In this document: positions 40,294 to 61,523 of the stretch, piece after piece
How positions within the stretch are numbered: the stretch's first letter is position 1
Layout of the letters: every line of letters starts with the position of its first letter
Source of the DNA: a virus
DNA length: 64,000 nucleotides
Virus record (IMG/VR): IMGVR_UViG_3300033128_000027
Span: 185-64,184 of that record
Reading direction: 5' to 3' (one strand)
The notes under the pieces: generated by a model
What the model saw: only the letters and a program-made list of their open reading frames with translations
Told to the model about the DNA's origin: nothing
The model's database searches: none
Position numbers and translations under genes: made by a program

Positions 40294-43200
40294 ATGTCAG
40301 ATTTAAAACTTAGAATTATAGGTACTTTGAATTCTAAAGCTACTATTACCGAAGTAAATAAAGTAATATCCAAAATAGAAAAAGATTTATCAAAGATTAA
40401 ACTAAATATCCAGCTTGATGATAAAGTAGCAAAGTCTCTTTCAGATTATGCTAAAGCTATGGAAAACTATAAGAATATCTCTTCTCAATTGAATAGAGTT
40501 CTTAAAGAAGAAAAAACAATTACTAAAGATGTGAATGGCGTTACAAAAGAAAGGATTTCTCAACAGTTAAAAAGTGGAGAAATTATTCAAAAAGAAATAA
40601 CTCGTCTTAATAATAAGAATAAAGCTACTCAAAAGGAAATCGAAAATACAAATAAATTACAAGTAGCGTATGATAAACTTGGTCAAAAACAAAAACAAGT
40701 CACTACTCAGACCAATAATGGTACTTCTACTTCTAATCAATTTAAGAATGGATTCACAAATACAACTGTAAATTCTAATGTTAATGGCGATGTTACCTCT
40801 GTTAAAACTGTACAGAACCTAGACCAAGAAAGAAAAGCAACTGAAACATTAATAAATAGTAAAAATAAATTAAAAGATACTCTTAGACTTTTAAACAGTG
40901 AAGGTAAAATATCTTCTGATAGTTTATCTAGATTAAATAATGCAGTTAATAGTGCTAAGAATATTGAACAATTAAATAGACTTAAACAAAACATTGATAA
41001 CGTTAATAAAGTTAGAGAAATGCAAAATAAGTTAATACTTGCTCAACGTGAAGCTGAATTAAAAGTAAATAACTTTAAAGCTAATTCTAATTTAAATTCA
41101 ACGCAAACAGCTCAGTTGAATGCTTACTTACAGTCAATAAACTCATTAACAGCTAGAACTCCTCAATTAAATCAAAGATTACGTGAAATGTCCTTAAGAT
41201 TTAATGAAATAACCTCAGAAGCAAGAAATGCAGGTGCTCAAGCTAGAACATTTGGAGAAAGAGTGCAATCGGCATTTAGCTTTATTTCAGTTGGCATGCT
41301 TACATATGGGGCATTTTATGGATTTGTTAATACTATTAAAGACATGACAAATCAAGTGGTTGAACTTGATACAAAAATGACCAATTTACGAAGAGTGATG
41401 GATTTACCAGACTATAAATTTAATGATTTAATGAAGGAATCTATTGCTCTAGGTGATCAACTCTCGAATAAAATCGGTGACATACTTGATATGTATGGCG
41501 GCTTTGGTCGTATGGGATATGATGAAAATCAGTTGACGGCTGTATCACGCACTGCTCAAATCCTACAGAATGTCTCGGATTTAACTCCAGATGATACTGT
41601 CAATACTCTTACTGCAGCAATGCTCAATTTCAATATAGCTGCGGAAGATTCTGCGCAAATTGCTGATAAATTGAACGAAGTCGATTAATTGTAGTCGCCT
41701 ATGTTAGTGATAGCATAGTGAAAACTCGGTGAACCTAGAAATCTAGGGTGTGTTCTGATGAACGCTAACGGTGAAACTCTAAGTCTGAAAAGATATGACA
41801 ATACCGTGCCAAGCTTGGAAGGAAACTTTCTTGAAGGTGTAACGACTAGAATATACCTCCTACGTCTTTTGATATGGAGATGAAATTCGTACTATATAAG
41901 TGAAATTCTTATATGGGAAGTGCCGAGGTTGTGATTTGATCACTACAAGAGATAGTCTAATCCCCTCTTAAAAATATGTGGAAACACAGGGTAAAAATGA
42001 ACAATTACGCAGTCACTACTCTTGATTTAGCAAATTCTATTCGTAAAGCAGGTAGTACTGCATCTACCTTCAATGTAGAATTAAATGATTTAATCGGTTA
42101 CACAACAGCCATTGCAAGTACCACAAGGGAAAGTGGAAATATTGTCGGTAAATGTCGAATTGCTGACATTAAATCTCTTCTGATTGACTTGGAACCCCTA
42201 ACGTTTAGACGAGGGAGACAGGGCGCAAGCGTAATTGCAGCGTGAACGACTAAGTGAAGAGACATTCTTAATAGAATGAAGCGATAGTCTGAACTTCTAT
42301 GGAGACATAGAGAGTAAGGTTGAAGTGCCTTACCGCCATATAATTAACTATGGTCAGTAACCTTTATTGGTGAAAGTAACAGAGTGAACTCTTTAAAAAC
42401 TATTTTCGCTAGATTAACAAATAATTCTCAAGCAATTGGTGCATTAAATGATATTGGTATTTCAATAAATGATGCTAATGGAAAACTAAAGCCAACTGGT
42501 CAAATTTTAGATGAGATTGCGGCTAAATGGAACACCCTATCTGATGCTGAAAAACAAAATGTGGGTGTAAAAGGTGCTGGCATGTATCAACTATCGAGGT
42601 TTAATGCCTTAATGAACAACTACTCGATAGCGCAAGAAGCATCTGAAACAGCAGCTAATAGTTTTGGCTCGGCAATGCGTGAACAAGAAAAATATTCAGA
42701 ATCTCTACAAGCTCGTATTAACCGCCTTTCTAACGCATTTACATCTTTGGCAGTAAGTGCTGGAGATGCACTAATATCTGATACTTTAATTGTGGCTACT
42801 GAAGAATTTGGTGACTTTCTAAAAACTACTGGCGATGTAATAGATGTAATTGGAGTATTACCTATTGTAATGGGAACTGCTGGTGTTGCAACAGTATTAC
42901 TAAGTAAGAATGTTCGAGGAATGTCTACTGCCCTTCTTACTGGAAATGTTTCTCTAGCTGGTACTGCAACTTCTTTATTTGGTTTGGAAGCTGGTATGTC
43001 AAGAGCAGCTATAGCTACTGCTGTATTTAAAACAGCATTACGTGGTTTAATGGTGGCTACTGGCGTAGGTGCTATATTAACTGTTTTAGGTTTTGCGATT
43101 GAGAAAATAACAAACCACTTTGCCGAAGCTAAACAAAAACAACAAGAATATGAACAAATTCAGAATACAACGGTTGAGTCATTAACAGCTAATAAACAAG

Positions 43201-46200
43201 CAACTGATGAATTATTAAAGAAATATCAAGAATTAACTGAAGCTAAAAACTCAGGCAGTTTTAATAGTGATAAAGAAAAAGAGTATTTACAAGTATCACA
43301 ACAACTTGCGGGTCTCCTCCCTTCTCTTGTTGATCATTATGACTCTCAAGGAAATGCTGTCTTAAAAGTTGGAGATGCACTTAAACAAGAAATTGAGTAT
43401 ACTAAAGAACTTGTTCGTCAAAAGAAAGAATTACAACAGGAAGAAGCTAAAGATAATATACAATCTGCATTAAAATCTGTAGATAAAATAGACAATAAAA
43501 TTGATAAAAAGAATCGAATTCTTGATCACAAAGCTGGAGTTAGTGGTGTAAATTATTCAGCCAAAGATAAGAAAAAGATTGAAATTGAAATTACTGAATT
43601 AAAACGTCAATACAATGAGCAACAAATGAAATTACGTGAAGAGTTGCAGAAAACTGTAGACTCTTATTTTACTGACATAACTATTGACACTTCTATTACT
43701 GCTAAAGTAAACAGTGTTATTAGTTCACTTGATGTTTCTGGTGCATCTGCTGAAGAATTAAATACTTTTGCAACCAATGTAGCTTCTGCTATGAAGAAAA
43801 TGCAAAATGCTGTAACTAATAATGATGAGAATGCATATAAGATTGCTAAAGCTGATTTAGATGATCTACTTACTTCTTATAATGTTGCTGAAGGTGGTTC
43901 AAGAAATCTAGAATTATCCTTCCAACAAGTAAAAGACAGTATAAATGGTGTTTCAGATGCAGCTAAAGGTCAAAAAGTCATTTGGGATGAGAATGGTGAA
44001 GTTGTCGGGGAAGTTTCGGGTGAATACGAAGATTTATCATCTAGACTCCAAGATGCTAAAGGTGATTTCGAAGCTATAAGAGATATCATACTTGAAACTG
44101 CTAAAGCTGGTGATTACCAAGCTGCTATAACAGCGAGTATGACAGACGCCTACACTTCCTTATCTGATGAAATTTCGCCACTCAATGATTTACTCGAAAA
44201 AACTGCTGAAGGTAAATCTATCACTTCTAATGAAGCCATGCAACTTATCGCTAAAGAAAAAGACTTGGCTTCTGCAATCAGCGTGGAAAATGGTCAAATT
44301 AAAATCAACCGAGAAGCAGTCCTTAAACTTCGTGATGCTAAAGTAGCTTCATATAAACAAATGATTGATGCACAAAAACGTGAAGTTCAAGCTCAATCGG
44401 AAGGTTTAAAAGTTAAACTTAAAAACTTTGGTGTTGAAGTAAAAGGTATTCTAACCGTTGCACAAGCAAATGAAGCGTTGGCTAAAGCTGAGGAAGAACG
44501 TGCTCGTAAAATGGCTGGATTAAATTCTGACCAAACTGGAGCTATGCACGGTTCTACTGTTGTTCAGAATCAATATGAAGGTATCACTTCTGGTATCAAC
44601 GACATTAAATCAGCATATGAGGCTCTAGACCAAATGTCCGCTATCGCTTCAGCAGGATTAACTGAAGTTGGCACATCTGCAGAATCTTCCTCTGATAAAA
44701 CAAGCAAAGCTAACGAAAAATCTACATATACAACTGATAAATATAAGCAGAAAATGGAAGAGTTAGGTCTTGCTTTAGCTAAAGTGGATAAAATTAAAAG
44801 TGAATATCCACAGCGTTCTAAGAAATACCAGGATGCAATTAAACAGGAAATCAAACTTAAAGAACAGCAATTGAAGTTAATGAATGCTGAAGTTAATAGC
44901 CTTAACAAGCAAATTAAATCAGGAAATATAGTTGCTAAAGGTACTAAGACAACTATAAGTACCACTTCCCCTTCTACTTCCAACTATGTAAGTGGAGGAA
45001 GTACTGAAGCGTCTGTTTGGAATTTCTTTAAGTCTAAAGGTTTCTCTGATTCTGCAACTGCTGGTATTATGGGAAATTTACGTCAAGAATCTGGTTTTTC
45101 AACCACTGCTGTTAATAGGTCATCAGGTGCTACTGGTATCGCTCAATGGTTAGGTGGGCGTTTAAGTGGACTTAAAAACTTTGCTGGATCTCAAGGTACT
45201 AGCTATACTAACCTTAACACTCAACTTGAATGGTTATGGAAAGAATTAAACGGTGCAGATCCTACAACAAAGTCCATCATTAATAAAAATGGTGGTATGA
45301 ATGCTTTCATGAATATGGGAGTTAACGATGCTGCCCTTCTATTCGAAAAAGCGTTTGAACGTTCAGGTGGTGATGCTCTAGGTAATCGTCAAAAGTATGC
45401 CAACAGTATATATACGAAATATGCCGGTACTACCCCTACTGGCTCAGCTAGTGCAGATACATCAAGTACTGTAGCAGATAAAGCACAAGCTATTGACCAA
45501 GCTAAGTCTGACGTATTGAGTATGCAAGAAGAAGCATTACAGATACAGCAACAAATCAACGATCTTAATATGGAGCTAGTTAACTCTGTTCTTGCTGGTA
45601 TCGGCTACAAAAAAGCTGCACTCGAAGATGACTTGGCGCAAATTGATCTTGTACAAAGTTATGAAACAGAGTCTTCTAATAAGTGGACAGATGCCCAACT
45701 AAAGAAAGAAAAGCTACTTCGTAAACAACTTGGTTATGAACAAGAAGCTATGAAGTATCTGAAAGAGCAAATCAAAAACAACAAAGCCTTAACAGAAGCA
45801 CAAAAAGCTCAATTATCAGATGATTTACTTCAACGTACTCAAGATATGATTTCTCTTGAAACTCAGCTATTAGACCAACGTAAGCAAATGGCTGATACGA
45901 TTGTCGATACTTACAAACAAGCTGCGGAATCTATTAAAGACACTCGTCTTAAGACAATTGATAAAATGATTGATGCAATTAATAAGAAAGATGATGATGA
46001 ATCATATGCAAAAGATTTAGCTAAGAAGCAAAGTGAACGTCAAAAGATATTAGATGATATTGCGAAATATTCTTTAGATGACTCATTTGCAGGTATCGCT
46101 AAAGTTAAAGAGCTGCAAGATCAATTGGCTGAAATGGATGAATCCTTAGCCGACATGCAATCCGACAGAGAAAAACAACTTAGAATCGATAATCTAAATA

Positions 46201-46820
46201 CTCAAAAGGATTCTATTCAAGAGGAATTTGACAATCTTGTAAATGATGAACGTAAGTTTGCTAAAATGCGCTCTGATATTATCAATGGAAATGCTAGTCA
46301 AATTCAAAAAGATTTGAATAAGTATTTCAGTAATATTAAAGCTAATTCTAGCATTATGGGTAAGGCTCTATCTAATAATCTAATAGATTTAATCAATCAA
46401 GCTAACCGATATTTAAACGGTAAAGATTATAAGCCTATTAAGATTGCTTCTGCAGCTAAAGGTGGAATATTGCCTTCTTGGGGTAATGAAGGCAAAGCAA
46501 TGGTTGTCCATGAAGAAGAAATGATCTCTACAAAACACGACACGAAGAATTTACTTACAGCTATGGAACAAGCTAAAGATTTGACCAGTTCTTTAAAAGG
46601 TTTAGAAGTTGGTAAAACATTAGCAAGTGCGGCTTTGAATTTACAGACAAGTTTTAAATTACCTACTATCCCCTCCCTTTCCTCTTCTGTATATACTGGA
46701 GGAGATAATCATTACCATGTAACATTTGGTGACTTGAAGGTGACAGGTGATCAAAACGGAGCTAAAACATTATTAAATACATTCGTTAACGGAGTAAGAA
46801 AATTAGGTGGAAATATTTAA
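40294..46820 (+). CDS. Tape measure protein, join(40294..41685,42000..42149,42387..46820), 1991 aa, with phage tail lysozyme domain
   Basis: Removing two introns gives DKLNEVD|NNYAVTT...RESGNIVG|NSLKTIFAR; lysozyme motif GIMGNLRQESG...GIAQW near 45000-45425; YomI position. Confidence 0.9.
41686..41999 (+). ncRNA. Group I self-splicing intron 1 (314 nt, no ORF)
   Basis: Exon ends in U, intron ends in G; IGS GTCGCCT with U.G pair; P10 TAATTGT/ACAATTA; P3 CTCGG/CCGAG; P7 GACTA(41844)/TAGTC(41953); GAAA-capped P9. Confidence 0.9.
42150..42386 (+). ncRNA. Group I self-splicing intron 2 (237 nt, no ORF)
   Basis: Exon ends in U, intron ends in G; IGS GCTGAC; P3 TCTCTTC/GAAGAGA; P7 GACTA(42248)/TAGTC(42285); P8 CATTCT/AGAATG. 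Confidence 0.88.
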
Positions 46821-46876: not shown

Positions 46877-47641
46877 GTGATTAGGGAAAGTTTATATTTT
46901 GAATTTGCGGGTGTGCGTTCAACTAGATTTAACATTATGAATGTGTCTGTAAGTAACAGTTTATTTAATGAACCATTAATGAGTAATCGAACAATAAATG
47001 AAGTGTCGATTCGTGGTCGAGATAAGCCTTATTTTATAGATATCGAAAAATCCCCTCTCTCCTTTCAATTAAGTTTTTACTTTGATGATAAGTGGGACGA
47101 TAAACAAATACATGAAGTAATTAAATGGTTGAATGTTGACTATTACCAGCCTCTATCTTTCAGTGAAAATCTAGATAAAGTTTATTATTGTATGCCTGTA
47201 GAATCAACTGAACTTATTCATAATGGTTTAAAGCAAGGTTATATCACACTAACCATGCGCTGTGACTCTCCATATGTCTATGGTAGACAATCTACTACTC
47301 GATGGTATGAATGTAAGAATTCACCTACTACTTTAGAAATAATAAATCTAGGACATGAAACGATATATCCTTTAATTTATATAAGTAAATTGGATGACGG
47401 AAATGTAGAAATTACGAATTTAAGTAGAGCTAATAATGTTCTGAAAATAGTCTCATTAAATAAGAATGAAAAAGTTATGATAAATGGGGAAAATCAAATC
47501 ATTGAAACTAATTTACCTAACATATATAGGTATGATAATTTCAATGATTTTTATTTACCTCTTTATGTAGGGAAGAATCGGATTCAGATATCGGGAAAAT
47601 GTAAAATTAAATTTCAATATCGCTTTAAATTTGTTTCATAG
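46877..47641 (+). CDS. Distal tail protein (Dit)
   Basis: After tape measure; GYITLTMRCDSPYVYG, PLYVGKNRIQI Dit-like motifs. Confidence 0.82.
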   Translation: MIRESLYFEFAGVRSTRFNIMNVSVSNSLFNEPLMSNRTINEVSIRGRDKPYFIDIEKSPLSFQLSFYFDDKWDDKQIHEVIKWLNVDYYQPLSFSENLDKVYYCMPVESTELIHNGLKQGYITLTMRCDSPYVYGRQSTTRWYECKNSPTTLEIINLGHETIYPLIYISKLDDGNVEITNLSRANNVLKIVSLNKNEKVMINGENQIIETNLPNIYRYDNFNDFYLPLYVGKNRIQISGKCKIKFQYRFKFVS

Positions 47642-47654
47642 GAGGTGAAAATAA

Positions 47655-50600
47655 TTGGGGAAAATAGCCGATATTTCTAAATGGCAAGGAACGATAAATT
47701 GGTCTAAAGCAAAAAATGAGTTGGATTATGTTTTCATTCGAGTCCAGTATGGATCTAATTTAATTGATTCTAAGTATAAAGAGTATGTTGCTGGTGCTAA
47801 ACAATATAAAATACCCTTTGGTCACTACGCATATGCTCAATATGTTTCTGTGAGCGATGCCGTTCAAGAAGCTAAAGATTTTTGGAAACGTTCAGACAAA
47901 AACGCTACCACTTTTGTTATTGATGTTGAAGAAATTACAACTAGGAATTCAAGCGACTTAGTTCCAGCGACTCAAGCTTTTATTGATTATTTACATAGTC
48001 AAGGTGCTAAAAAGGTTGGGTTATATTCAGGTGATTCTTTCTATAAGACTAATAAATTATCAAGAGTTAAAGCAGATTTCTTATGGATTGCAAGATATGG
48101 TGTGAACAATGGTAAGCCTAGTACTAAACCTTCTATTGCATGTGATTTATGGCAATACACATCTACTGGGTCAGTGTCTGGCATATCAGGTGATGTCGAT
48201 TTAAATGCACTATATGGTTCTAAACCACTATCTTACTTTACATCGTCTTCTGTTTCTACACCTGTTCCAACACCAGAGCCAGAGCCTGAAAAACCGCCAA
48301 TTGAGGAGCCTGAACCTCCTATTGTTCCTGAATTACCGGAAGAACCAGATGATGATGGTAGTAATGGTGACGATGTTGAGCAACCTGATGATGATACAGA
48401 TGGAGTAATTAAGCCTCCAATAGAAATACCATATGAAAAAGAGTTAGTTAATCCTAATAGCTTAATTAGTTCTTATATTGTTAGAAATGGAGAAAATGTA
48501 GCTAATCCCCAATTGTTCTTAGCTACTCCTACTGGAAATGTGATTGCAGATTTATCTGAATCGTACAATAGAAAGTTGACATTAAATTTTACAACACCAA
48601 ATGAACTATCCTTCTCTCTTCCTTATGAAATAGAGGTATTAAATAAATTGGTTTCAAATAAAACAGTGAGTTTATTAAGAGAGAGATTTTTAATAAAGTT
48701 ACTTTTTGCTGGTGTAGAGTCATGGTATATTATTACTCAAAAACAGCCCTCTTCATCAGATAGCGACTTAATTAATGTTCAGTGTTTTTCACTAGAGTAT
48801 GAATTAAGATATCGTAAAATGTTGAATTACCAAGCTGTATCTTATAACTGCCTCCAAGTGTTAAATGATGTTTTAAAAGACACTAATTGGAGCATTGGAT
48901 ATATAAACGATGAATTCAATTTGAAATATCATCAATTTGATGTGTCTAGCAGTAGTAAATTAGATTTTATCAATGATATATGTAAAAAATTTAATGCTTA
49001 TGTAATTTACGATACTGTCAACAAAAAGGTACATATTTGTAAGGAAGAAGAAGTTTCTATTTATAAAGGTTTTTGGGTTGAATATGGTAAATATCTTCAG
49101 AACATTGAACAAACAGATGAAATTGAGGATATAGTTACAAGATTGCATGTTAGTGGTGCTAATGATGTATCCATTAATTCGGTTAATCCAACTGGACAAT
49201 CGTATATTGATAACTTTTCTTATTTTCTTTATCCGTTTGATATGGATACTCAAGGCAATATAACAAATCACAGCTATTATATGTCTGATGAACTATGCCT
49301 TGCATTAATCAACTATAATAAACTAGTAGAAAATAACACAGGCACTTTCAGTAAATTACTAGAAAAAAAATCAAATTTACAAAAGGAATTAGCGGATATA
49401 AATGCTAAACTTAGAACATTAGAAAACGAGTTAACGATTATATTAGACAATATTCAAATAGCAAAAGATGGTGGAGAATCAACTGCCTCATTGAATCAGC
49501 AGCGGGATAATAAAGAATCTCAAATATCATCTCAGAAAAAGCAATTATCTTCTAAACAGGCTGAAATAACCAATGTTGATGTTGAGCTTTCTAAATTAAA
49601 TTTATTATTAAAATTAGAAAACAATATTGCTGATAACCTTTTAATAGAATTGAGGAACTTTATTTTCGAGGGCGAATATTCAGATGACAGTCAAATAAAT
49701 GATGCTGATTTGTATGAATCTGCCATTACGGAATTAAAAAATATTAGTTCCCCTCCTATTAATATTTCAATGGGGATAATAAATTTCTTTGCTGTCCTTG
49801 AAGAAAAACATAATTGGAATCGTTTATGTATTGGTGACATTATTAAAATTAAACATAAAAAAATAGGAATAGATGTCAGAGTAACCGTTGATTCTTTAGC
49901 ATTTGATTTTGATAATTATTCGATTAGCATTAACGTTACTAATACTAAGAGACCTAAATCCGACGAAGAAAGATTAATAAATGCTCTTTATACTATTGAT
50001 AAGGTTAATACTGATTACAATAAACGGAAGCGCAATTGGAATAATATTGCTACAAATTTTAATTCTCGAAATGATCGTATTTCAGTTACACCTAATAGTC
50101 CAACCAACGTAACTATTGCACATAAAATTAACGATAATGGGTCTGCTGATTTAACAATAAACTGGAATTATAATGATTACGAAAAGACTAAAAAAGATGC
50201 AGATAACATAGATGGATTTATTGTTTACATGTATTCAGATATATCAAACGAACGCTATGTATTCGGATCAACAATTGCAAAAGAAACTATAATATCGGTT
50301 AATTACTCTATTAAAACATACACCTTTCCAAGCGTCCCTCCTAATCGTTTTTATACATTGGGGGTTCGAGCCTATAGACATGTTGATGATGACATTAACA
50401 TAGATGGGATTATTTTTTCTGACTTAGTAACTCCTTCTGACGTAAATCAAAACCCTTATCAACCAAGTGAATTAACGGTTGTCAATGGATTACTCTACGG
50501 AAAGGTAAACGGGGCAATTTATGTTACTTCAGATGTTGAACCAGAAGAAGCTGAGGTAAACAAGACTGTATGGGTAAATCCTTCAACTTTAGAACAATCA

Positions 50601-51131
50601 GTGCTAACCGAAACTGGATATAAACCTCTTTCGTCAGGGAATGCTAATTCTGTTTCGGGTTATCCAACTGATATTAACGATGTACCAAATTCTATTCCAG
50701 TTAGAGATTCAAAAGGCTTGATAAACGCATCCATTACAGGAAATGCTAATTCCGTTGGAAATCGTAGACCTGGAGTTTCAAATGGGTTAGCAACCTTAGA
50801 TTCAACTGCAAATGTTCCTTTAATACAGTTAGGCAATGCATCAAGGTTTGCTAGTGGCAGCTATGTCGGAGACGGAACACAAGGTAAATTAATAGCACTT
50901 CCCTTCTCCCCTTCTTTGGTTAAATTATATACAACTAACTCAACAGATGTAAGTTTATTCATTCCGTCTTCAGAAGGCGGTTTTTTATTTGGACAAAATA
51001 GTGTTCTCATTTCCCCCATATCTATTGCGAATGGGAAATTAGATAGCGGTGGTTTCTTCACTGGCAATTCAACTGAATGCTATGGAAATAAATTAAATGT
51101 CATTTACTACTGGGAAGCATACAAATCTTAA
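47655..51131 (+). CDS. Tal/baseplate hub protein with N-terminal GH25 muramidase
   Basis: IADISKWQG, FVIDVEE, WIARYG, LWQYTSTG, GDVDLN (GH25); Pro/Glu/Asp linker; then prophage-tail domain (IVTRLHVSG) and coiled coil. Confidence 0.85.
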   Translation: MGKIADISKWQGTINWSKAKNELDYVFIRVQYGSNLIDSKYKEYVAGAKQYKIPFGHYAYAQYVSVSDAVQEAKDFWKRSDKNATTFVIDVEEITTRNSSDLVPATQAFIDYLHSQGAKKVGLYSGDSFYKTNKLSRVKADFLWIARYGVNNGKPSTKPSIACDLWQYTSTGSVSGISGDVDLNALYGSKPLSYFTSSSVSTPVPTPEPEPEKPPIEEPEPPIVPELPEEPDDDGSNGDDVEQPDDDTDGVIKPPIEIPYEKELVNPNSLISSYIVRNGENVANPQLFLATPTGNVIADLSESYNRKLTLNFTTPNELSFSLPYEIEVLNKLVSNKTVSLLRERFLIKLLFAGVESWYIITQKQPSSSDSDLINVQCFSLEYELRYRKMLNYQAVSYNCLQVLNDVLKDTNWSIGYINDEFNLKYHQFDVSSSSKLDFINDICKKFNAYVIYDTVNKKVHICKEEEVSIYKGFWVEYGKYLQNIEQTDEIEDIVTRLHVSGANDVSINSVNPTGQSYIDNFSYFLYPFDMDTQGNITNHSYYMSDELCLALINYNKLVENNTGTFSKLLEKKSNLQKELADINAKLRTLENELTIILDNIQIAKDGGESTASLNQQRDNKESQISSQKKQLSSKQAEITNVDVELSKLNLLLKLENNIADNLLIELRNFIFEGEYSDDSQINDADLYESAITELKNISSPPINISMGIINFFAVLEEKHNWNRLCIGDIIKIKHKKIGIDVRVTVDSLAFDFDNYSISINVTNTKRPKSDEERLINALYTIDKVNTDYNKRKRNWNNIATNFNSRNDRISVTPNSPTNVTIAHKINDNGSADLTINWNYNDYEKTKKDADNIDGFIVYMYSDISNERYVFGSTIAKETIISVNYSIKTYTFPSVPPNRFYTLGVRAYRHVDDDINIDGIIFSDLVTPSDVNQNPYQPSELTVVNGLLYGKVNGAIYVTSDVEPEEAEVNKTVWVNPSTLEQSVLTETGYKPLSSGNANSVSGYPTDINDVPNSIPVRDSKGLINASITGNANSVGNRRPGVSNGLATLDSTANVPLIQLGNASRFASGSYVGDGTQGKLIALPFSPSLVKLYTTNSTDVSLFIPSSEGGFLFGQNSVLISPISIANGKLDSGGFFTGNSTECYGNKLNVIYYWEAYKS

Positions 51132-51149: not shown

Positions 51150-54149
51150 GTGAGTTGGGATGATGAAATAATTAATTACAACGACCCCATTGTCTTTTTA
51201 AGTAGGAAAGGCGATGCAACCGATCCATACAAACGTATTATTGAGACTGTTCAAATTGTGAACGGAAGAGCTGTTTTACGTGAGGTTCCCGAGCAAACTA
51301 GAGAAGTCACAATCACAAGTCCAGATAAAACGTGGTATGAAGTTGAAGATGAAGCTTTAGAAAATAATTACTACCAAGTAGACTACATACAAGGTGTAGT
51401 CTTTTTTACTGCGGAAAATAACGATAAAAGTGTTACCGTAGAATATTTCGGTAAAGGAGCATATTATACTCCTGATACAAGGATTTATTTAACAGGAGAT
51501 AAAAAGTTCACGAATGTTGCATTGAAATTCAAAGATTTAGATCGTGCAGATTTAGAACAAAAAAATCGTGTTGATGAATTAATTACAGGTGTTCCCCAAC
51601 CATCGGAAGTAGTTGATAATCGTATTGATAGAAATGGGAAAGAATACAAAACCATGCGGGATAGAACTAATGCGCTTCAAGAATCTATAGAAGATGCTTA
51701 TATTGGTGCAGACGGAAGAACATATGCTTCTTTGAAACACCGCAATGACACACAGGATGCCACTATTGAAGCACATGAAGTCAAAATTGAGGCATTCGAT
51801 ATTCTAACAAAAAAGATTAAAAACAGAGTGTCAATTTATGAATATGAAGATTTAATCCCTAATAAGAACACTGCTTCCTCTCCTGCTTTTTGGGATTGGA
51901 CGGAAGCTATTAGGACTGCATTAGGTGATGGGAATGTAGAATTATACTTTCCTGCCGGTACATACAGAACTAGACAAGTAAATATTCCTTCCTTCACTTA
52001 TATTTATGGGGATGGTTTATACAATACTCATATTTTGTTAATTGAAAATGCTCCTGTTGGAGAACACCTATTTACTAACTCCGATAAAGTCAATAACGGC
52101 AATTCTTACATACGTATTGAAGACTTGGAATTAGATTGGAATAGAGAAAGATTAGGATCTGGTTACACAATTCCAGCGGGTCCGACTTCTTCTGGTTTAA
52201 TGTTAGCTAACACTCAATTTGCATGGATAAATCGAGTATTTTCTAAGAACGGTGGTTTACATTGTTTTGATATTACTTCTCCGGAGTATAACCGAACAAG
52301 TGGACAAAATAGCCCTGCTTATTATCAACCAAAAGGTTGCTCAAATATATGGCTTGATAGTTGTATTGCTACTGGAGCAGGTGATGATAACTTCACTACT
52401 CATTTCAGCGAGTATATTTATTTTAATAATTGCTATTCATACGCCCCTCTTGGAAATGTACATGAAGAAGGTGCGGCTAACAGCAATAACTTTGAAATAG
52501 ATGACGGATCAAGAAATATTTGGGTAACAAATTGTACGGCTATTGGTGGAGTTCGTGGATTTGAAATAAAGGCGCATGTATATGCCCCTGCTGCTAGAAA
52601 TATTACACTAGATAACTGTAAATCTATCAATAGTATTCGTTCATTTGATTTACGTCATATTGGACACCATACAGACGATGAACCAATTTCACCAAATGCT
52701 TTTGATGTTACTTTAAATAATTGCACGGCTATTAATCCTAAAACGGGTTCTCTATATGCTTCGTTGAGACCACGCGCATTGGTTGTTTCTGCATATCGAA
52801 ATGTTAATATTAATAATTTTACTGCTATCGGTGAATCTTCTAATTTAACTACTGGTGATTCTGTAATTGTCTTCCAGTATAAATCAGGATTGATAAATGT
52901 AAATAACGTTAAAGTGAGTGGATTCAAAAATGCGGATAATGATTTATATATAACTGGCGGTGCACAAAAAGCCGACAATATAAATGTAAGTAATATGACA
53001 AGTTATGAATCTGCGAAAAACGGTATTTATTTAGGAAGCCAAGTTACAAATGCTGATATTTCTAAGGTAGCATTATATAAAACTAGTAATAGTGGGACTG
53101 GTGTTGTTGCTATTAACTCACAAAATAATCTGCTAGGCTTAACAGTTACTGGATATAGTAAACAAGCAACTATCGCAGGGGTAGATCACACCACTCCCCC
53201 TTCTCGTATTCGTAATGGATTAGTTGTAGCCAGTTCATCAGGAGCAGCTAAATCTGATACGGCATTTATTGCAGCAAGTACGGCTAATTCGATTGCCAGC
53301 GGTAGTAAAAATGCAATTATTTCTTCTTCTAACGTTGACACAACAGGAGAATACAATGCGATTATTTCATCATCTGGAGATTCGCAATTGAAGAATACTC
53401 GTGGAGCTATTATAGCTTCCAATGGATCTAAAATAACAAATACGGATGCTTATGAATCAGTTGTATTGGCTTCTAATAACGTTATAAATCCTAGAAGTAA
53501 TACAGTAGTATTGGGTCATGGATGGACTCCATCAACTGCTAATCGAAATATTGAATTAGATGCGGCAAACGGTACTATTAAAGCCACAGGCGCTATTACA
53601 GGCTCCTCCTCTTTTAGTGACTACGCTGAGTATTTTGAAAGTATAGATGGCAACAGTATTCCAAGTGGGACTCTTGTTACCTTAGATCAAGGGTTTATTC
53701 GTATTGCTAAAGATGGAGACGATATGCTAGGAGTAATTTCTGAAACTGCAGGAAGTGTATTAGGTGAATCTTCATTCTATTGGCAAGGTAAATACTTAAG
53801 AAATGACTTTGGAGGATTAATTTATGAAGAAGTTGTACTTACTGAAGTCAATGCAGATACAGGTTCAACGACTAATCGTTTAGCTTTATTGCCTAAAGAG
53901 AATCCTAATTATAAGGAATCGGACAACTATCTTCCCCGTTCTGAAAGACCTGAATGGAACATTGTAGGATTAGTTGGTCAGGTATATGTAAGAATTGATG
54001 GAACAGTTAAGCAAGGCGATTACATAAAACCATCTGATGGAATTGCAACAATGTCAGTTGAACGTGGTCAAGGATGGAAAGTTATGAAAATAACTAAGCC
54101 GTATATTGAATCAATTGGCTATGGAATTGCATTGGTATTTATCAGATAA
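51150..54149 (+). CDS. Tail spike: pectate-lyase-like beta-helix with C-terminal Peptidase_G2-type chaperone
   Basis: YFPAGTY, DDNF, NNFEIDDGS beta-helix; SDYAEYFES...NIVGLVGQVYVR as in phi29 gp12-type spikes; YomE position. Confidence 0.85.
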   Translation: MSWDDEIINYNDPIVFLSRKGDATDPYKRIIETVQIVNGRAVLREVPEQTREVTITSPDKTWYEVEDEALENNYYQVDYIQGVVFFTAENNDKSVTVEYFGKGAYYTPDTRIYLTGDKKFTNVALKFKDLDRADLEQKNRVDELITGVPQPSEVVDNRIDRNGKEYKTMRDRTNALQESIEDAYIGADGRTYASLKHRNDTQDATIEAHEVKIEAFDILTKKIKNRVSIYEYEDLIPNKNTASSPAFWDWTEAIRTALGDGNVELYFPAGTYRTRQVNIPSFTYIYGDGLYNTHILLIENAPVGEHLFTNSDKVNNGNSYIRIEDLELDWNRERLGSGYTIPAGPTSSGLMLANTQFAWINRVFSKNGGLHCFDITSPEYNRTSGQNSPAYYQPKGCSNIWLDSCIATGAGDDNFTTHFSEYIYFNNCYSYAPLGNVHEEGAANSNNFEIDDGSRNIWVTNCTAIGGVRGFEIKAHVYAPAARNITLDNCKSINSIRSFDLRHIGHHTDDEPISPNAFDVTLNNCTAINPKTGSLYASLRPRALVVSAYRNVNINNFTAIGESSNLTTGDSVIVFQYKSGLINVNNVKVSGFKNADNDLYITGGAQKADNINVSNMTSYESAKNGIYLGSQVTNADISKVALYKTSNSGTGVVAINSQNNLLGLTVTGYSKQATIAGVDHTTPPSRIRNGLVVASSSGAAKSDTAFIAASTANSIASGSKNAIISSSNVDTTGEYNAIISSSGDSQLKNTRGAIIASNGSKITNTDAYESVVLASNNVINPRSNTVVLGHGWTPSTANRNIELDAANGTIKATGAITGSSSFSDYAEYFESIDGNSIPSGTLVTLDQGFIRIAKDGDDMLGVISETAGSVLGESSFYWQGKYLRNDFGGLIYEEVVLTEVNADTGSTTNRLALLPKENPNYKESDNYLPRSERPEWNIVGLVGQVYVRIDGTVKQGDYIKPSDGIATMSVERGQGWKVMKITKPYIESIGYGIALVFIR

Positions 54150-54273: not shown

Positions 54274-54681
54274 GTGGCAGAATCTATTGAAGCTATACAA
54301 GTTGAAATAGAACATATGAAAAAGGATATCGATGAGGTAAAAGCTGATGTAAAAGAGACAAAAACAATGTTAACAAAAAATATAAATCAGCTAACACTAA
54401 CTCAAATACAACAAACAGAAATTTTAAAAAATCAAGAACGACAGAATGCTGAAATGAAAGAAGATATCAACGGCTTAAAAACACATGTTGATTCAGAAAT
54501 TGGTAATTTGAGAAATGATTTTAAAGAAACAACAAATACTCATACAAAGTGGTATCAGACTTACTTAACTGATAATACAAGTAAGGTATTTAGAATATTT
54601 ATGTTCATTATTATAATCGTTTCAGGAGTAAAAATAGCTATTTCTGATATTCCTAAAATTTTGCAATCATTTGGCTTATAA
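54274..54681 (+). CDS. XhlA/BhlA-like holin-associated protein
   Basis: Coiled coil plus single C-terminal TM helix after tail genes. Confidence 0.5.
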   Translation: MAESIEAIQVEIEHMKKDIDEVKADVKETKTMLTKNINQLTLTQIQQTEILKNQERQNAEMKEDINGLKTHVDSEIGNLRNDFKETTNTHTKWYQTYLTDNTSKVFRIFMFIIIIVSGVKIAISDIPKILQSFGL

Positions 54682-54756: not shown

Positions 54757-56583
54757 ATGTCATTATATTATCCTAACGTCTCCCCTAACTATGTATTTCC
54801 TAGAAATCCTGACCAGTATATTCAACTTATTCAAACAAAAATAGTTAAATATAACAAAATTACACTTAAAGAAATACCTAGTTATAGGCATTCATTTGTT
54901 GTAAAAAAACTAGACGGAACAATAATGAATAGAGTAGACGGTAACCCTTCTTCATCTAATCAATTTAGGGTTGATTTTGTAACTGGTGATGTATTCTTCC
55001 ACTCTACTATGGAAGGTAAAGAAATCGAAGTAAGTTATACAGGAACTGGTCAGGTGAATTTTGGGGCTAATAAAATAATTGTAAATACAAGTCCTACTAA
55101 TGAAGAAGAAGTAACAGTACAAGACATATTAGATACTCAAGAGGATATTTATACACAAGTTACAGATGTTAAAACCACCATTGAGCGCAACCAAATTGTT
55201 AAGTTAGATGATTTTAATTACTTGAAGGATACTACATATCAATCACCTAAAGAATTCAATTGGATTTCTATTGCTAATCAAGACACATTCATAATCGACA
55301 CTGGAAAGTTTACCGAAAAAAGTTTGATTGATTTATCTATTGGGAATGTACCTCAATCATCTGATAATTTCATCTTAGAAAATGATAAAACAATTAAACT
55401 ACTTAATCCCCTTCCTGCTGGTGTTAAAGTTTATGTAAAATGGTCGGAAGGTAAAAAAGTTGTGAATAATTCAGTTGATGTTACAGATATATATGCCGAA
55501 ATAAATAAAACGAATAATAGGTTATATAAAACTGCAACCCAATTATCTATTGTTGAACGCAAAAAAGCTGATCAGTCTGATGTTGAAACTATTCTTGCAG
55601 CAGTGGTTTCAGGAGCACCTAAAGGATTTTTTAATACTCTTTCTTCTCTTCAAAATGCTTATCCGAATGGAACAGATGGCATTTTTTTAGTACTCGAAGA
55701 CGGACATATATATATATGGATTAATTCTTCTTGGCAAGATGCAGGAGTTTACCAAGGGATTGAAGTTGGAAACAAAACTATCACACCCAATAAACTTAAT
55801 AACGAATTAAGAACCATTCTTGGGATTGATAATGTATACCCAGATACATATTTCAGTAAGACAATAGAACAAACTCTCTCAGAATCAAATTATTTTATAG
55901 ACTTGGAAAAAGTTGGTTTAATCACTAAAATTTCAAAAGGCTATGAATTAAAAGTTGATACACAATCTACCATAAAAACTTATCTAAGTGAATTAAAATT
56001 CGGTATGGTCTTAAATGGAGACACAATTAGTGGCGGAGAGCACTTAAATATAGGAATTAAAATCTTAAGTGATAGTAATTTTTCATCGCCTGTAAAATTA
56101 GGAGTTGCATTTTATGATTCTAGTGGGAATGTACTGACCAGTTACTATCTACAAAAAAAGGAGAATCATTACCGACTAGAAAATCAAGAAATTCCTTTAA
56201 ATGCAAAAACGATGAACTTCACAGTACAGCTTGATGTTAGAGGATTCACAACAGATTTTGTTGATTCATTTTCATTCACAGAGTTAGTGATTAACAAAGG
56301 GAGTAAAATCACTAATCCGCTAGGGTTAGCTGGAAGAGTAAAAGATTTAGAGAATGACAGCAATTTTTTAGGTACGACTATTCTTAATCGAGATAAAGAC
56401 GGTCTACTTAAAACTGTAACTAATGACATATCTAGTGTTGAAATACTAAGAAATACCAATGGCTATGTCACATCTATACTTAAAAAATGGGTTAATGGAA
56501 AGGCTCAAACGACTGTTATTAATAGAGATGCTAATAACGTTGTAACTAGCATAGTCACAAGTGAAGGAGAGTCTTTATTATGA
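54757..56583 (+). CDS. Second receptor-binding/tail fibre-like protein
   Basis: N-terminus similar to that of the 999-aa spike; SGAPKG...AYPNG...GHIYIW..SWQDAGVYQG module. Confidence 0.6.
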   Translation: MSLYYPNVSPNYVFPRNPDQYIQLIQTKIVKYNKITLKEIPSYRHSFVVKKLDGTIMNRVDGNPSSSNQFRVDFVTGDVFFHSTMEGKEIEVSYTGTGQVNFGANKIIVNTSPTNEEEVTVQDILDTQEDIYTQVTDVKTTIERNQIVKLDDFNYLKDTTYQSPKEFNWISIANQDTFIIDTGKFTEKSLIDLSIGNVPQSSDNFILENDKTIKLLNPLPAGVKVYVKWSEGKKVVNNSVDVTDIYAEINKTNNRLYKTATQLSIVERKKADQSDVETILAAVVSGAPKGFFNTLSSLQNAYPNGTDGIFLVLEDGHIYIWINSSWQDAGVYQGIEVGNKTITPNKLNNELRTILGIDNVYPDTYFSKTIEQTLSESNYFIDLEKVGLITKISKGYELKVDTQSTIKTYLSELKFGMVLNGDTISGGEHLNIGIKILSDSNFSSPVKLGVAFYDSSGNVLTSYYLQKKENHYRLENQEIPLNAKTMNFTVQLDVRGFTTDFVDSFSFTELVINKGSKITNPLGLAGRVKDLENDSNFLGTTILNRDKDGLLKTVTNDISSVEILRNTNGYVTSILKKWVNGKAQTTVINRDANNVVTSIVTSEGESLL

Positions 56584-57158
56584 ACGATTTTACAATGACA
56601 GAGATTACAAATCCAATATTGAATGTGTCTGCATCCAGTCAGTATACATATGGCTGGGTAGCAGGTGCAAATAATGTTACATCTTTCAAAGGAAATTTAA
56701 CTGATTTTATTTTTGCCAAAGGTGAGAACGAAGGTTCTTTAGGTAGAGGCGTGGTTTTAAATCCTTCAAACCCAGCTTCTGCAGTACCTTATCTAGGATA
56801 TTTAGCATTTACATCAGGACAGCCTACATGGATTGGTATACCTATTGCTTCTAAAGGATTTAGAACTTTTCATGCATCGCTTCAAAGCTCAATGAACCAA
56901 GACTTCGATATTAGCGCTTATTTACTTCCTGAAATAAGCGGTGATTTTAATGGAGGAAACATTGCTAATAGGTTACTTATTCAAACTTTATTCACATCAG
57001 AAATTCTCTCCAATGGAGCGACTTTAAATTTCGGACCCGGAGGGATAGATAAACAACTCTATTCGCCTTTACCTCTTGGTTATCTAGTCATTAAAGTATC
57101 ACCTACAACTATTCCTACAGACGGTGTATTGAGATTTGGAGTTGAAAGACAAAAATGA
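56580..57158 (+). CDS. Hypothetical beta-rich protein (192 aa)
   Basis: ATGA overlaps both sides. Confidence 0.7.
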   Translation: MNDFTMTEITNPILNVSASSQYTYGWVAGANNVTSFKGNLTDFIFAKGENEGSLGRGVVLNPSNPASAVPYLGYLAFTSGQPTWIGIPIASKGFRTFHASLQSSMNQDFDISAYLLPEISGDFNGGNIANRLLIQTLFTSEILSNGATLNFGPGGIDKQLYSPLPLGYLVIKVSPTTIPTDGVLRFGVERQK

Positions 57159-58246
57159 TGCTATATGATCCCTTTTCTATAAATTATTTACCAAATAAAA
57201 AAAATGATTATTTAATAGTAACTGGAAATTTCAGATACCCTAGCACGATTGATGATATTTCAAACTTATATGCTCATTATGCATTTAAAAAGTCAGAAAC
57301 AACTTTACCTATTGTAATTTTAATGCATGGTTATACTCAAGATTCTAATTCTATGACAACGCAAATTATGAAAGATATGGCTGAATATGGTTTCTTCGCA
57401 TGTGCAGTTGGTATGAGGGCAAGGGATGGAGCAACAGGTAATGTAGATGTAAGCGGAAGAGAATTGTACGATATCATAGACGCAGTTGAATATGTAAAAC
57501 AAAAATTTTCAACAGTTATTGACGAGAATCAAATACATGTTGCTGGATACAGTGGTGGTGGAGGAAATGTATTTGGTCTTGCTGCTAAGTTTCCAGATTA
57601 CTTTAATTCCCTAATTTCTCATTTCGGTATCTCTGATTATGGTTACGACACAATTAACAGCTGGTGGGCAACAAATCCAAGTAGAAGAACCTCTTTAGAA
57701 AATTGGATAGGTTTTAATCCGACCAATAATTTAGGCGCTTATTATTCAAGAGCACACCAATATGGGGTAGCCAAAAATTTAAAAAGTGGTTTCTTATGGA
57801 TGTTCCATGATTCTGAGGACACAAACGTCCCCCCTGTTCAATCGCAAATTGTTAAAGAACAGATGGATATACATAATCGCAAAAACTATTATCTAAGTAT
57901 TACAACTCCTAGCGATAACCCAAGATGGATTCATGCAAGTCCAGGTGAAAATGATCCTGTAAGATTCACAAGGGATTATTGGGGGTCACCAATTATTGAT
58001 AAACAATATCCTCAATGGTCTGTGAATGAAAGTGGTGAAATGTTGATTCAAGGATACTTAAAGACAAAAAGGTTCGAGATATGGTTGGAAACTGGTCAAG
58101 AACATGTGGCTGAACTTGCTTATGATGTAACTACAGGCTCTTACACAATTAACCCTCTAAGTGGAACAATTGAGGTATCTATAAAACAAGGTAATAGCTC
58201 GGCGTCTCAAACTATAAATGAACTTACAACAATTATTGTATCATAG
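57155..58246 (+). CDS. Alpha/beta-hydrolase (esterase/peptidase)
   Basis: VILMHGY, GYSGGG nucleophile elbow, FHDSEDTNVP. Confidence 0.85.
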   Translation: MMLYDPFSINYLPNKKNDYLIVTGNFRYPSTIDDISNLYAHYAFKKSETTLPIVILMHGYTQDSNSMTTQIMKDMAEYGFFACAVGMRARDGATGNVDVSGRELYDIIDAVEYVKQKFSTVIDENQIHVAGYSGGGGNVFGLAAKFPDYFNSLISHFGISDYGYDTINSWWATNPSRRTSLENWIGFNPTNNLGAYYSRAHQYGVAKNLKSGFLWMFHDSEDTNVPPVQSQIVKEQMDIHNRKNYYLSITTPSDNPRWIHASPGENDPVRFTRDYWGSPIIDKQYPQWSVNESGEMLIQGYLKTKRFEIWLETGQEHVAELAYDVTTGSYTINPLSGTIEVSIKQGNSSASQTINELTTIIVS

Positions 58247-58436
58247 AAGGGGAATCTTCATATTTAGGTTAGCAAAATAAAATGCTACTTCCCTCTCCCC
58301 TACTCTATTGATTAAATAGGATATTACTTTTATTGTAGAACAATTCAATAATTTTACTTTAGAGAATCGTATTTTGACGGTTCTCTTTTTAATCATGCGA
58401 GAAATACAAATGAAAATAGAACGGAGTTGATGAACT

Positions 58437-60710: not shown

Positions 60711-60728
60711 AGAAAGGAGTGCTTAAAA

Positions 60729-61103
60729 TTGGCGCTTGTTATGAATTATAATTATGAGTTAACTTACATCAACACAAAAATACAATTAGATCCTAAATTC
60801 AAGTCTGAATTTAATGAAGTTAAAGAACAGATAACAGAAACTCTAGTTGTAAAAGATGCGTATTTTCAAATAGTCAAAATTGAAGGAAATAAGGAAAAAA
60901 TGGATATTGTCTTATCAGTTTACAAAGATAACACTAAAAAGTACGTTTTAGAAACAAGAGTATATTCATTTAACCCTTCTGTTTCGTTTGACTCTCCAAA
61001 TAATTTTAAACAAGGGTACGAATATCTAAAAACATTACCAGAATTTGATGGAGCAATTGACGTTTTAGAAGACGAAGATTATCAAACTTATTCAATTAGT
61101 TAA
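60729..61103 (+). CDS. Phage tail-associated/assembly-like small protein
   Basis: KQGYEYLKTLPEFDGAIDV C-terminal motif typical after phage fibre genes. Confidence 0.55.
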   Translation: MALVMNYNYELTYINTKIQLDPKFKSEFNEVKEQITETLVVKDAYFQIVKIEGNKEKMDIVLSVYKDNTKKYVLETRVYSFNPSVSFDSPNNFKQGYEYLKTLPEFDGAIDVLEDEDYQTYSIS

Positions 61104-61216
61104 ATAGAAGCATGTTAAAAGGTGACTTTTATTGTAAGTCCCCTCCTCTATACTTTAATTTAGTAATTTTAGAGTTTTCGTAATACGAAGACTCTTTATT
61201 TTTTTTATAAGGAGGT

Positions 61217-61507: not shown

Positions 61508-61523
61508 CAAAGGAGGTGAATTT

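Follow-up and report, generated by a model that had tools for sequence, protein, structure and literature searches.

Textbook Tal proteins bear their enzyme at the C-terminus, and those of the lactococcal phages Tuc2009 and TP901-1 are among the classical tail-associated lysins. The window studied here, a stretch of 64,000 nucleotides of viral DNA (positions 185 to 64,184 of IMG/VR record IMGVR_UViG_3300033128_000027), holds a gene in which a GH25 muramidase domain precedes a Tal-type hub in the same reading frame. The locus raises the question of what such an enzyme does at the N-terminus of a tail-tip protein: whether it serves entry of the virion, exit of the progeny, or both, and whether the fusion is genuine.

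Gene and Genomic Setting

The source record is a fragment of 64,207 bases with a CheckV completeness of 49%, and an Rfam scan of the window returned zero families over threshold. The gene occupies 47655-51131 on the + strand as one uninterrupted ORF of 1158 codons that opens on TTG, has its stop codon at 51129-51131, and lies 13 kb from the end of the record. Its surroundings are as follows.

40294..46820, + strand: tape-measure gene in three exon-like ORFs (40294-41688, 41976-42245, 42384-46820)
46877..47641, + strand: distal tail protein (Dit), directly 5′ (Pfam DUF6558, Sipho_tail and SPP1_Dit; phrog_33, E 6e-33)
47640..47657, + strand: ribosome-binding site AGGAGGTG (47640-47647), spacer of 7 nt, start codon TTG (47655-47657)
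51150..54149, + strand: tailspike/pre-neck-appendage-like protein with an autoproteolytic Peptidase_G2 C-terminal domain (PF11962, E 2e-82; phrog_4775)
54274..54681, + strand: 135-aa coiled-coil protein with a C-terminal membrane segment (hydrophobic residues 101-119)

Read from the sequence, the ribosome-binding site is strong and overlaps the Dit stop codon TAG (47639-47641), and the start is supported by homologues that open with the identical MGKIADISKW, one of which (L003) likewise starts on TTG. The PhageMin_Tail profile is divided among the three tape-measure ORFs (profile positions 6-85, 87-134 and 136-196), and the last of them carries a lysin module of its own, Phage_lysozyme2 (PF18013, residues 874-1013, E 1.2e-32). 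The gene order of tape measure, Dit, GH25/hub gene and tailspike is the standard Tal position and is the same in SPbeta and phi105, while a Peptidase_G2-type tailspike is also the neighbour in phi105 and in the complete IMG/VR provirus G001. The 135-aa coiled-coil protein, probably the "holin-like gene" of the initial annotation, belongs to no Pfam or PHROG family but is 50% identical to L003:16638-17078, and its position is kept in G001, there outside the lysis cassette. Taken together, the phage is likely an SPbeta-like siphophage of the Bacillus type, with this gene encoding its tail-tip hub (Tal).

Domain Architecture of the Fusion Protein

The protein can be divided into the following parts, all on the + strand.

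47670..48185, + strand: GH25 muramidase catalytic domain, residues 6-177 (Pfam PF01183, Glyco_hydro_25)
48246..48407, + strand: low-complexity linker of Pro-, Glu- and Asp-rich composition, residues about 198-251
48408..48494, + strand: conserved junction of 29 aa, residues about 252-280 (PPxEIPYDKxLVNPNSxISSYIVR; alignment A1)
48495..50054, + strand: gp27/Tal-type baseplate hub of the YomG family, residues 281-800 (Pfam, PHROG, AF2 and Foldseek)
49287-49610, + strand: long helical-hairpin insertion in the hub, residues about 545-652
50055..51131, + strand: C-terminal extension, residues 801-1158 (Pfam; AF2 pLDDT 73.5; Foldseek)

That GH25, linker and hub lie in one ORF, as the initial annotation had proposed, is borne out by the 1158 open codons, by Pfam matches to both GH25 and YOMG_N, and by the AF2/Foldseek hub fold. 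The enzyme domain covers profile positions 2-180 of the 180 in PF01183 (E 3.3e-30; score 106 bits, cut-off 27), and its best PDB sequence matches are the Bacillus phage endolysins LambdaBa04 (3HMC, E 2.5e-62) and PlyB (2NW0, E 1.9e-53), to whose solved catalytic domains it is 58% identical. Its nearest free relatives, at 65% identity, are endolysins of the GH25+LysM and GH25+SH3 types, which supports the endolysin character claimed for the domain. The acidic residues D6, D90, E92 and D182 have identical counterparts at the aligned positions of 3HMC and 2NW0 and are invariant in 8/8 fusion proteins; following the GH25 literature we take them to be the catalytic ones (N-terminal Asp, DxE motif and C-terminal Asp). 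The domain is under strong purifying selection (dN/dS about 0.05 at dS 1.8, against L003), and across the eight fusion clusters it is the best-conserved part of the protein, at 80-93% identity, the hub reaching 53-90% and the linker 21-79%. These features predict an intact muramidase of the PlyB/LambdaBa04 endolysin type, and Pfam finds no cell-wall-binding domain (LysM, SH3 or PG_binding) anywhere in the 1158 aa.

The linker, PEPEPEKPPIEEPEPP...DDD, is roughly 55 aa long and is presumed from its composition to be a disordered tether. Some fusion homologues replace it with a Gly/Ser/Thr-rich stretch of other length, so that it is PE-rich in the window protein and GST-rich in P0007 and P0008, and the alignment contains no cleavage motif conserved across the clade in this variable part. 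The junction that follows occurs in the clade-A fusions and is mostly missing from the non-fused relatives P0010 and P0011; its residues I258, N266 and N268 are invariant in alignment A2. A tblastn match starting at query residue 252 had placed a junction-like sequence 5′ of SPbeta yomG; it was rejected as a spurious extension over the yomG ribosome-binding site, and a stop codon lies just 5′ of the stretch.

Within the hub and C-terminal part, all three YomG-family Pfam domains are present (PF24049, E 3e-23; PF24058, E 6e-43; PF24060, E 5e-14), in the order YOMG_N at residues 289-377, DUF7359 at 801-922 and DUF7361 at 1065-1157. The hub matches the minor tail protein family phrog_6211 (E 1.6e-177) and is 38-41% identical to YomG of the SPbeta group over 76-78% of the query (41% for SPbeta YomG). 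A PDB sequence search returned only the GH25 matches and weak FN3 noise, thus being uninformative on the hub, and a fold search was required. The AF2 model of residues 276-800 has a pLDDT of 81, and Foldseek matched it with probability 1.00 and E values of 3e-14 to 4e-6 to the monocin tip, the Tal of 80alpha and NF5, Listeria gp18, Mu gp44, T4 gp27 and VgrG (entries 9j1k_L, 6v8i_AE, 9m7n_A, 3gs9, 1wru and 1k28). On this model, the hub fold would consist of two tail-tube-like domains with insertions. It starts at about residue 281, unlike the N-terminal hubs of solved and most homologous Tal, an N-terminal position being a typical and not a strictly defining feature. The C-terminal extension comprises the FN3-like DUF7359, a poorly predicted stretch and the small beta domain DUF7361; Foldseek relates it to FN3 domains, T5 pb4 and DT57C straight-fibre proteins, and no hydrolase domain was found in residues 801-1158.

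Distribution and Origins

The GH25+YomG fusion recurs in 8 protein clusters at 90% identity, including isolate genomes of Niallia alba and N. taxi, and further independent assemblies with the uninterrupted fusion are G001 and one truncated metagenome contig. The combination is rare all the same, with 3 representatives among 1.84 billion and 0/50,697 phage records. A scan of genome contigs for more fusion contexts gave only an unrelated GH25, and a contig scan using a downstream gene of the window gave no relatives.

The general design is far more common than this particular pairing. An N-terminal GH73 on a Tal hub occurs in phi105 gp18 and in more than 100 Bacillus clusters, prophages of Peribacillus carry an N-terminal GH25 on Tal, and in P0050 a YomG hub bears another GH25 subtype that is unrelated to the first; all N-terminal lysin-Tal types compared have low-complexity linkers. 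YomG hubs gained GH25 at least twice, and judging from sequence comparison the N-terminal lysin-linker-Tal arrangement evolved several times over, each time from other hydrolases or hubs, and is widespread in Bacillus prophages. The GH25+YomG fusion is therefore a new version of an existing design, and the architecture suspected at the outset of being unusual is so in its rare pairing (8 clusters), but not in its hydrolase-linker-Tal order, which is common in Bacillus prophages. Literature searches gave nothing specific on YomG, GH25 virion lysins or phi105 gp18, and brought up no functional or structural study and no proteomic or enzymatic data on N-terminal lysin-Tal proteins.

Proposed Function and Alternative Explanations

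We consider the protein to be, with good probability, a virion-associated lysin tethered to the Tal hub and acting in entry, lysis being carried out by a separate cassette; this agrees with the initial annotation, whose "unusual virion lysin on a flexible arm" fits the evidence best. We infer that the GH25 domain is present in the virion, is exposed outside the baseplate and has its role in entry. An endolysin-derived GH25 would have been grafted onto the N-terminus of the hub, which would take the place of the usual cell-wall-binding domain. With Tal forming a trimer below the Dit hexamer, the baseplate of every virion would bear three GH25 modules on tethers. During adsorption these modules would locally cleave the glycan strands of the thick Gram-positive wall, complementing the lysin of the tape measure and helping tail tip and tape measure to get to the membrane, and the host would eventually be lysed by a separate holin-endolysin cassette past the end of the fragment. 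According to reviews, a wall-binding domain is typically missing in virion lysins (PMC6116005, PMC8310338), which supports this reading.

A competing idea, put forward in the initial annotation, is that the endolysin function is also performed by the GH25-Tal, or by a piece of it with the GH25 domain that is set free. The ancestry of the domain is indeed that of endolysins, and the 64-kb record contains no Amidase_2, Amidase_3, Holin_SPP1 or second GH25, nor did Pfam searches of the other large ORFs find a lysin besides Phage_lysozyme2 in the tape measure. The earlier statement that no separate endolysin lies nearby thus holds for the record, but the record is about half a genome, so that the absence means little and was discarded as evidence for dual use. 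The complete provirus G001, whose fusion is 73% identical, has an Amidase_2 endolysin, a Holin_SPP1 gene and a 93-aa ORF about 7 kb 3′ of it, a layout equal to the SPbeta arrangement yomG...yomC-yomB-yomA; in SPbeta the lysis cassette sits 3′ of the tail genes, where the present record stops (PMC8270828). Likewise, phi105 encodes its holin (gp23) and its amidase endolysin (gp24) separately from its N-terminal GH73-Tal (gp18). By analogy with this one complete relative and by synteny with SPbeta and phi105, the present phage would have a separate endolysin of its own. Nor does the gene look like that of an endolysin, its neighbours being Dit and the tailspike and its product being neither small and modular nor equipped with a wall-binding domain, and there is no adjacent holin, internal start or conserved cleavage motif. 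A separate hub-only product was rejected, since no in-frame ATG, GTG or TTG occurs between residues about 249 and 290. Dual use is very unlikely, and the GH25-Tal is most probably not the phage's exit lysin.

Processing of the linker at assembly or infection, by which GH25 would be lost from mature virions or freed at the cell surface, is somewhat easier to imagine, as the linker is long, presumably disordered and accessible to proteases. Lactococcal Tal, for example that of Tuc2009, undergo proteolytic processing that changes lysin display, and the autoproteolytic Peptidase_G2 of the adjoining tailspike means that processing does happen in this tail module. The variable linker, however, lacks a motif conserved across the clade, and several independent lineages would hardly have retained, at a dN/dS of about 0.05, a fused domain that the virion loses, so that we regard this as unlikely. 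That the GH25 fold is a non-catalytic module, binding peptidoglycan for adhesion or aiding assembly, is highly improbable: purifying selection cannot by itself tell binding from catalysis, and virion proteins may adsorb via wall-binding modules such as LysM (PMC8310338), but the four acidic residues aligning with the DxE and flanking Asp of solved GH25 are all invariant, and the use of GH73 at the same position in other lineages argues that wall cleavage is the selected property. Mis-assembly, or loss of the stop codon that would have separated an endolysin gene from a Tal gene, can be practically dismissed. Nothing was found in its favour beyond the caution that gp18 is given as two ORFs in an older record of phi105, so that mis-calling is easy, whereas the independent assemblies, isolate genomes included, and selection across the whole frame speak for a true fusion, as the initial annotation had assumed.

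The tethered display of GH25 nevertheless faces a structural difficulty. In solved baseplates the C-terminal domains of Dit clasp the exterior of the hub (80alpha, PMC7048315; NF5, PMC12917162), and an N-terminal extension of 280 aa must exit the Dit-Tal interface in a position where solved Tal start at residue 2-3. An alternative and unlikely mode of delivery is that the three GH25 modules are not displayed on the outside but kept at or within the Dit-Tal cavity, from which they would be driven out before the tape measure as the hub opens, or that they are set free as enzymes when the linker is cut, with the junction of residues 252-280 serving as a latch. If this were true, the whole N-terminal lysin-Tal class, phi105 gp18 and relatives, would represent an undescribed mechanism of wall penetration.

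On the reading favoured here, the gene is in practice to be annotated as a Tal that bears GH25 as a tethered lysin of the virion, and not as the endolysin. Virion-associated lysins attract study both as enzybiotics and for their part in determining infection of thick-walled or stationary-phase Gram-positive cells, and phages of the Bacillus group have repeatedly built an enzyme-tether-hub protein, for which two or more families of glycosidase and of hub have been used. The structural question thereby raised is the route of the N-terminal extension out of the Dit-Tal interface, for which phi105, a tractable B. subtilis phage, can serve as a model.

Comparison with Known Systems

The closest likeness in design is phi105 gp18 (YP_009829892, "tail protein with endopeptidase domain"; Bacillus prophage homologues about 570 aa), where one ORF following Dit likewise encodes an N-terminal peptidoglycan glycosidase and a Tal hub joined by a Pro/acidic low-complexity linker, in a locus that shares the tape measure, Dit, lysin-Tal and Peptidase_G2-type tailspike, with holin and amidase endolysin downstream. 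It differs in having a GH73 glucosaminidase, a shorter linker (about 30-60 aa), a short Prophage_tailD1 + Prophage_tail hub and no long C-terminal extension. PF06605 and PF18994 have no match in the window protein at E <= 0.01 (P0005 and P0050 match PF06605 weakly), and the protein is thus best regarded on its domains as an analogue in design of gp18, not as a member of its family.

The family relationship lies with SPbeta YomG, a minor tail protein of 875 aa that is homologous to window residues 276-1157 (38-41% identity), shares YOMG_N, DUF7359 and DUF7361, and occupies the same place following yomI (tape measure) and yomH (Dit). YomG and 15/15 of the non-fused representatives listed begin with the hub, at residue 3-17, without an N-terminal enzyme. 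Tal proteins of 80alpha (gp59) and NF5 (gp17) likewise combine a gp27-like trimeric hub beneath Dit, to which the fold match was obtained, with a wall-degrading module, but in these the enzyme is C-terminal and Tal is modelled from residue 2-3 (PMC7048315, PMC12917162), whereas the protein studied here has its enzyme at the N-terminus and ends in an FN3-like, non-enzymatic part.

The enzyme, in turn, is shared with PlyB (2NW0), LambdaBa04 (3HMC) and the free GH25+LysM and GH25+SH3 endolysins P0046 and P0047, which have the same acidic residues in a catalytic domain 55-65% identical and also carry GH25 at the N-terminus of a modular protein; these endolysins, however, are about 270-350 aa long, with C-terminal wall-binding domains and an adjacent holin, where the present protein has a 900-aa hub instead. 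Finally, the C-terminal GH25-Tal P0020-P0024 (e.g., of a Liquorilactobacillus hordei prophage) also join GH25 and a Prophage_tail-type hub in one protein, but in reversed order, with GH25 at residues about 445-635, and their GH25 domains form a separate clade.

Gene Neighborhood and Domain Organization

The source IMG/VR virus record comprises 64,207 bases, is 49% complete according to CheckV, and is covered nearly in full by the window, whose gene content is SPbeta-like. The fusion gene is a single unbroken frame of 1158 codons (47655-51131, + strand), and its TTG start sits 7 nt past AGGAGGTG, which overlaps the stop codon of the upstream gene for the distal tail protein (Dit). The tape-measure gene, with its own Phage_lysozyme2 module, lies 5′ of both, and a Peptidase_G2-type tailspike gene lies downstream. 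The product is organized as follows:

Residues 6-177, Glyco_hydro_25 (Pfam, E 3.3e-30)
Residues about 198-251, linker rich in Pro, Glu, and Asp
Residues 289-377, YOMG_N (Pfam)
Residues 801-922, DUF7359 (Pfam)
Residues 1065-1157, DUF7361 (Pfam)

These domains and the single frame bear out, as written, the initial annotation's observation that GH25, a linker, and the hub of the tail-tip protein (Tal) share one ORF. A PDB sequence search with the fusion protein returned matches for GH25 only and none for the hub part, and residues 276-800 were therefore tested by predicted fold, modeled from a 30-sequence alignment (pLDDT 81). In Foldseek, this hub model matched the monocin tip (E 3e-14) and 80alpha Tal (6v8i; E 3e-13) with a probability of 1.00, as it did the NF5 tail-associated lysin (9m7n), Listeria gp18 (3gs9), Mu gp44, T4 gp27, and VgrG, confirming the Tal hub identity proposed earlier; the model also contains an inserted helical hairpin of about 110 residues. 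The C-terminal 358 residues (pLDDT 73.5) were modeled as an FN3-like domain and a small beta domain, resembling FN3 modules and the T5 pb4 and DT57C straight-fibre proteins in Foldseek, and GH25 is therefore the sole enzymatic module of the protein.

Elsewhere in the window, where an Rfam scan at gathering thresholds gave no match, the PhageMin_Tail profile is divided (6-85, 87-134, and 136-196) over three successive ORFs (40294-42384), consistent with two intervening sequences in the tape-measure gene. The tape measure at 42384-46820 carries Phage_lysozyme2 (PF18013) in the same place where that of G001, a complete provirus with the same fusion, carries SLT and Peptidase_M23 (CwlP-like; L003:4588-9165 in the provirus sequence), and lysin modules have apparently been swapped in both tape measure and Tal within this phage group. 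A 231-aa ORF in the early region (4348-5043, - strand) may have an anti-restriction function, judging from its match to DarA_C (defence against restriction A, C-terminal; E 7e-7). A long series of probable fibre or depolymerase genes, far larger than in G001, occupies 54757-63703 and includes:

Within 54757-63703, a 608-aa protein
Within 54757-63703, ORFs of 757 aa and 452 aa with beta-helix-like repeats and no Pfam match
57155-58246, alpha/beta hydrolase or S9-like protein
62954-63703, SGNH/GDSL hydrolase, convergent with an acyltransferase fragment at the record end

Origin and Selection of the GH25 Domain

The window GH25 shares 58% identity with the LambdaBa04 GH25 endolysin (3HMC; E 2.5e-62) in the catalytic domain, and PlyB (2NW0) was also close in the PDB sequence search. 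Among the 1.84 billion representatives searched, the free proteins closest to the window domain (65% identity) are conventional modular endolysins with the architectures GH25+LysM, GH25+SH3_3, and GH25+glucosaminidase+LysM, and the look-alikes in IMG/VR are genes of about 320 aa located after small ORFs. In the GH25 domain tree, the 10 rows of the window clade form a monophyletic group (SH-aLRT 98) that falls within the free endolysins. Across eight fusion clusters, identity to the window protein is 80-93% in the GH25 region, 21-79% in the linker, 53-90% in the hub, and 46-87% in the C-terminal part. Between the window and the provirus copy, GH25 shows a dN of 0.093, half that of the hub, with a dS of 1.81 and dN/dS of 0.05. 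By this sequence comparison, strong purifying selection maintains the domain as an enzyme, and it is no relic.

Recurrence of the Fusion

Eight clusters at 90% identity have the identical architecture, some of them from the genomes of Niallia alba and N. taxi isolates (RefSeq name "GH25 family lysozyme"), and it recurs in the complete 178-kb IMG/VR provirus G001 (73% identity) and in one truncated metagenome contig. An assembly artefact, which the initial annotation had allowed for, is ruled out by this recurrence in isolates and a complete provirus. The combination of GH25 and YomG-type hub is rare: both parts are combined in only 3 representatives of 1.84 billion searched and in none of 50,697 phage records, where YomG of the SPbeta group aligns solely from residue 252-276 onward, and the YomG-type hubs among the matches listed (n = 15) begin at their own residue 3-17. 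A second GH25-YomG fusion from the representative library (P0050, 1176 aa) has a Pro/Ile/Lys/Glu-rich linker and a GH25 of a different subfamily, only 35% identical to that of the window. Its hub is 43% identical to the window hub and thus no closer than unfused hubs (48-50%), which points to an independent acquisition of GH25 or a module replacement.

The GH25 of P0050 and that of P0027 are separated from the window clade by a branch with 100% support, and together with the distance of the P0050 hub this indicates at least two to three origins of the design or exchanges of its enzyme. P0027 (690 aa) consists of an N-terminal GH25, Prophage_tailD1, and Prophage_tail, and a search for its relatives led to a large family of proteins of about 570 aa (>100 clusters, one of them on 166 contigs) in B. 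licheniformis, B. subtilis, B. pumilus, B. safensis, B. atrophaeus, and others. In these, a GH73 glucosaminidase at the N-terminus (residues 11-150) is followed by a Pro/acidic linker and the hub seen in P0027. Versions with GH25 are found in Peribacillus frigoritolerans and P. simplex. Every N-terminal lysin-Tal fusion examined contains a low-complexity linker of 30-110 aa. The window fusion belongs to this N-terminal-lysin design, common in Bacillus prophages, and the earlier reading of the architecture as unusual holds only for the GH25-YomG pairing. C-terminal GH25-Tal fusions also exist (P0020-P0024), whereas the window GH25 is N-terminal. Precomputed Pfam lists give PF26674 for GH25-YomG fusions and phi105-type GH73/GH25-Tal proteins (P0002-P0004, P0007, P0027, P0196, and many others), and also for some unfused hubs (P0204, P0254).

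Virion Lysin or Endolysin

The initial annotation had proposed either a virion lysin or a dual-use endolysin domain, of which the former is now favored. The fusion is most probably a virion-associated lysin: the top of the Tal trimer would bear three tethered GH25 modules, which would add to the action of the tape-measure lysin as the wall is penetrated. Service as the endolysin as well might be suggested by the record itself, in which no Amidase_2, Amidase_3, Holin_SPP1, or second GH25 was found and no lysin appeared when the other large ORFs were scanned with Pfam; however, this says little because the record, 49% complete, stops 13 kb after Tal. Downstream of the fusion gene, G001 has the tailspike gene, a counterpart of window ORF 54274-54681, fibre genes, and lysis genes (an Amidase_2 endolysin of 386 aa, Holin_SPP1, and an ORF of 93 aa). 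The arrangement in SPbeta is the same, yomG-yomF-yomE-yomD-yomC (endolysin)-yomB-yomA (PMC8270828), and phi105 likewise keeps a separate holin-endolysin cassette beside its N-terminal lysin-Tal, making a dual role very improbable.

Release of GH25 by processing of the linker is somewhat less improbable, although still unlikely, given that the variable linker has no conserved cleavage motif among the fusion homologues compared; no in-frame start codon lies close to the beginning of the hub either. A non-catalytic binding role is likewise very improbable, as D6, D90, E92, and D182, which align with the conserved acidic residues of GH25, are invariant in all fusion homologues.

The ORF at 54274-54681, probably the "holin-like gene" of the initial annotation, and its counterpart at L003:16638-17078 (50% identity) encode a coiled-coil protein of 135-146 aa with a C-terminal membrane segment, directly after the tailspike in both phages. 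The window protein has no Pfam or PHROG family, and it is probably not the holin, since its G001 counterpart does not lie next to the endolysin.

In solved baseplates, the Tal chain is modeled from residue 2-3 and the C-terminal domains of Dit grip the hub exterior (PMC7048315; PMC12917162), so that the structural question for the fusion is by which route its 280-residue N-terminal extension exits past the Dit grip. A 29-residue junction segment (252-280), which the fusions conserve and which the unfused relatives P0010 and P0011 lack for the most part, may run along the Dit-Tal interface. Linkers are longest in the SPbeta-type fusions, in which Tal is extended far at its distal end, and a long linker would fit an enzyme that needs to reach the wall at tail-tip level.

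Comparison with phi105

Among cultured phages, phi105 carries a member of the N-terminal lysin-Tal family, gp18, in which a GH73 glucosaminidase at the N-terminus is joined to a Tal hub and which is 68% identical over 100% of P0217, a homologous protein. It is encoded at 9001-10704 of NC_048631, and in the older records AB016282 / NC_004167 (13837-15538) it is divided into ORF39 ("endolysin") and ORF40 ("tail protein"), matching in two pieces, probably due to a frameshift in the old sequence. A literature search found no published functional or structural study of the N-terminal lysin-Tal design, gp18 included, for which gp18 is a tractable model. The phi105 order is tape measure gp16, Dit gp17, gp18, and pre-neck-appendage-like gp19, with holin gp23 and amidase endolysin gp24 further on, and the local synteny of tape measure, Dit, lysin-Tal, and appendage or tailspike matches that of the window. 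The Tal-borne virion lysin is an already known kind, to which this SPbeta-like phage adds a new form with GH25 on a YomG-type hub.
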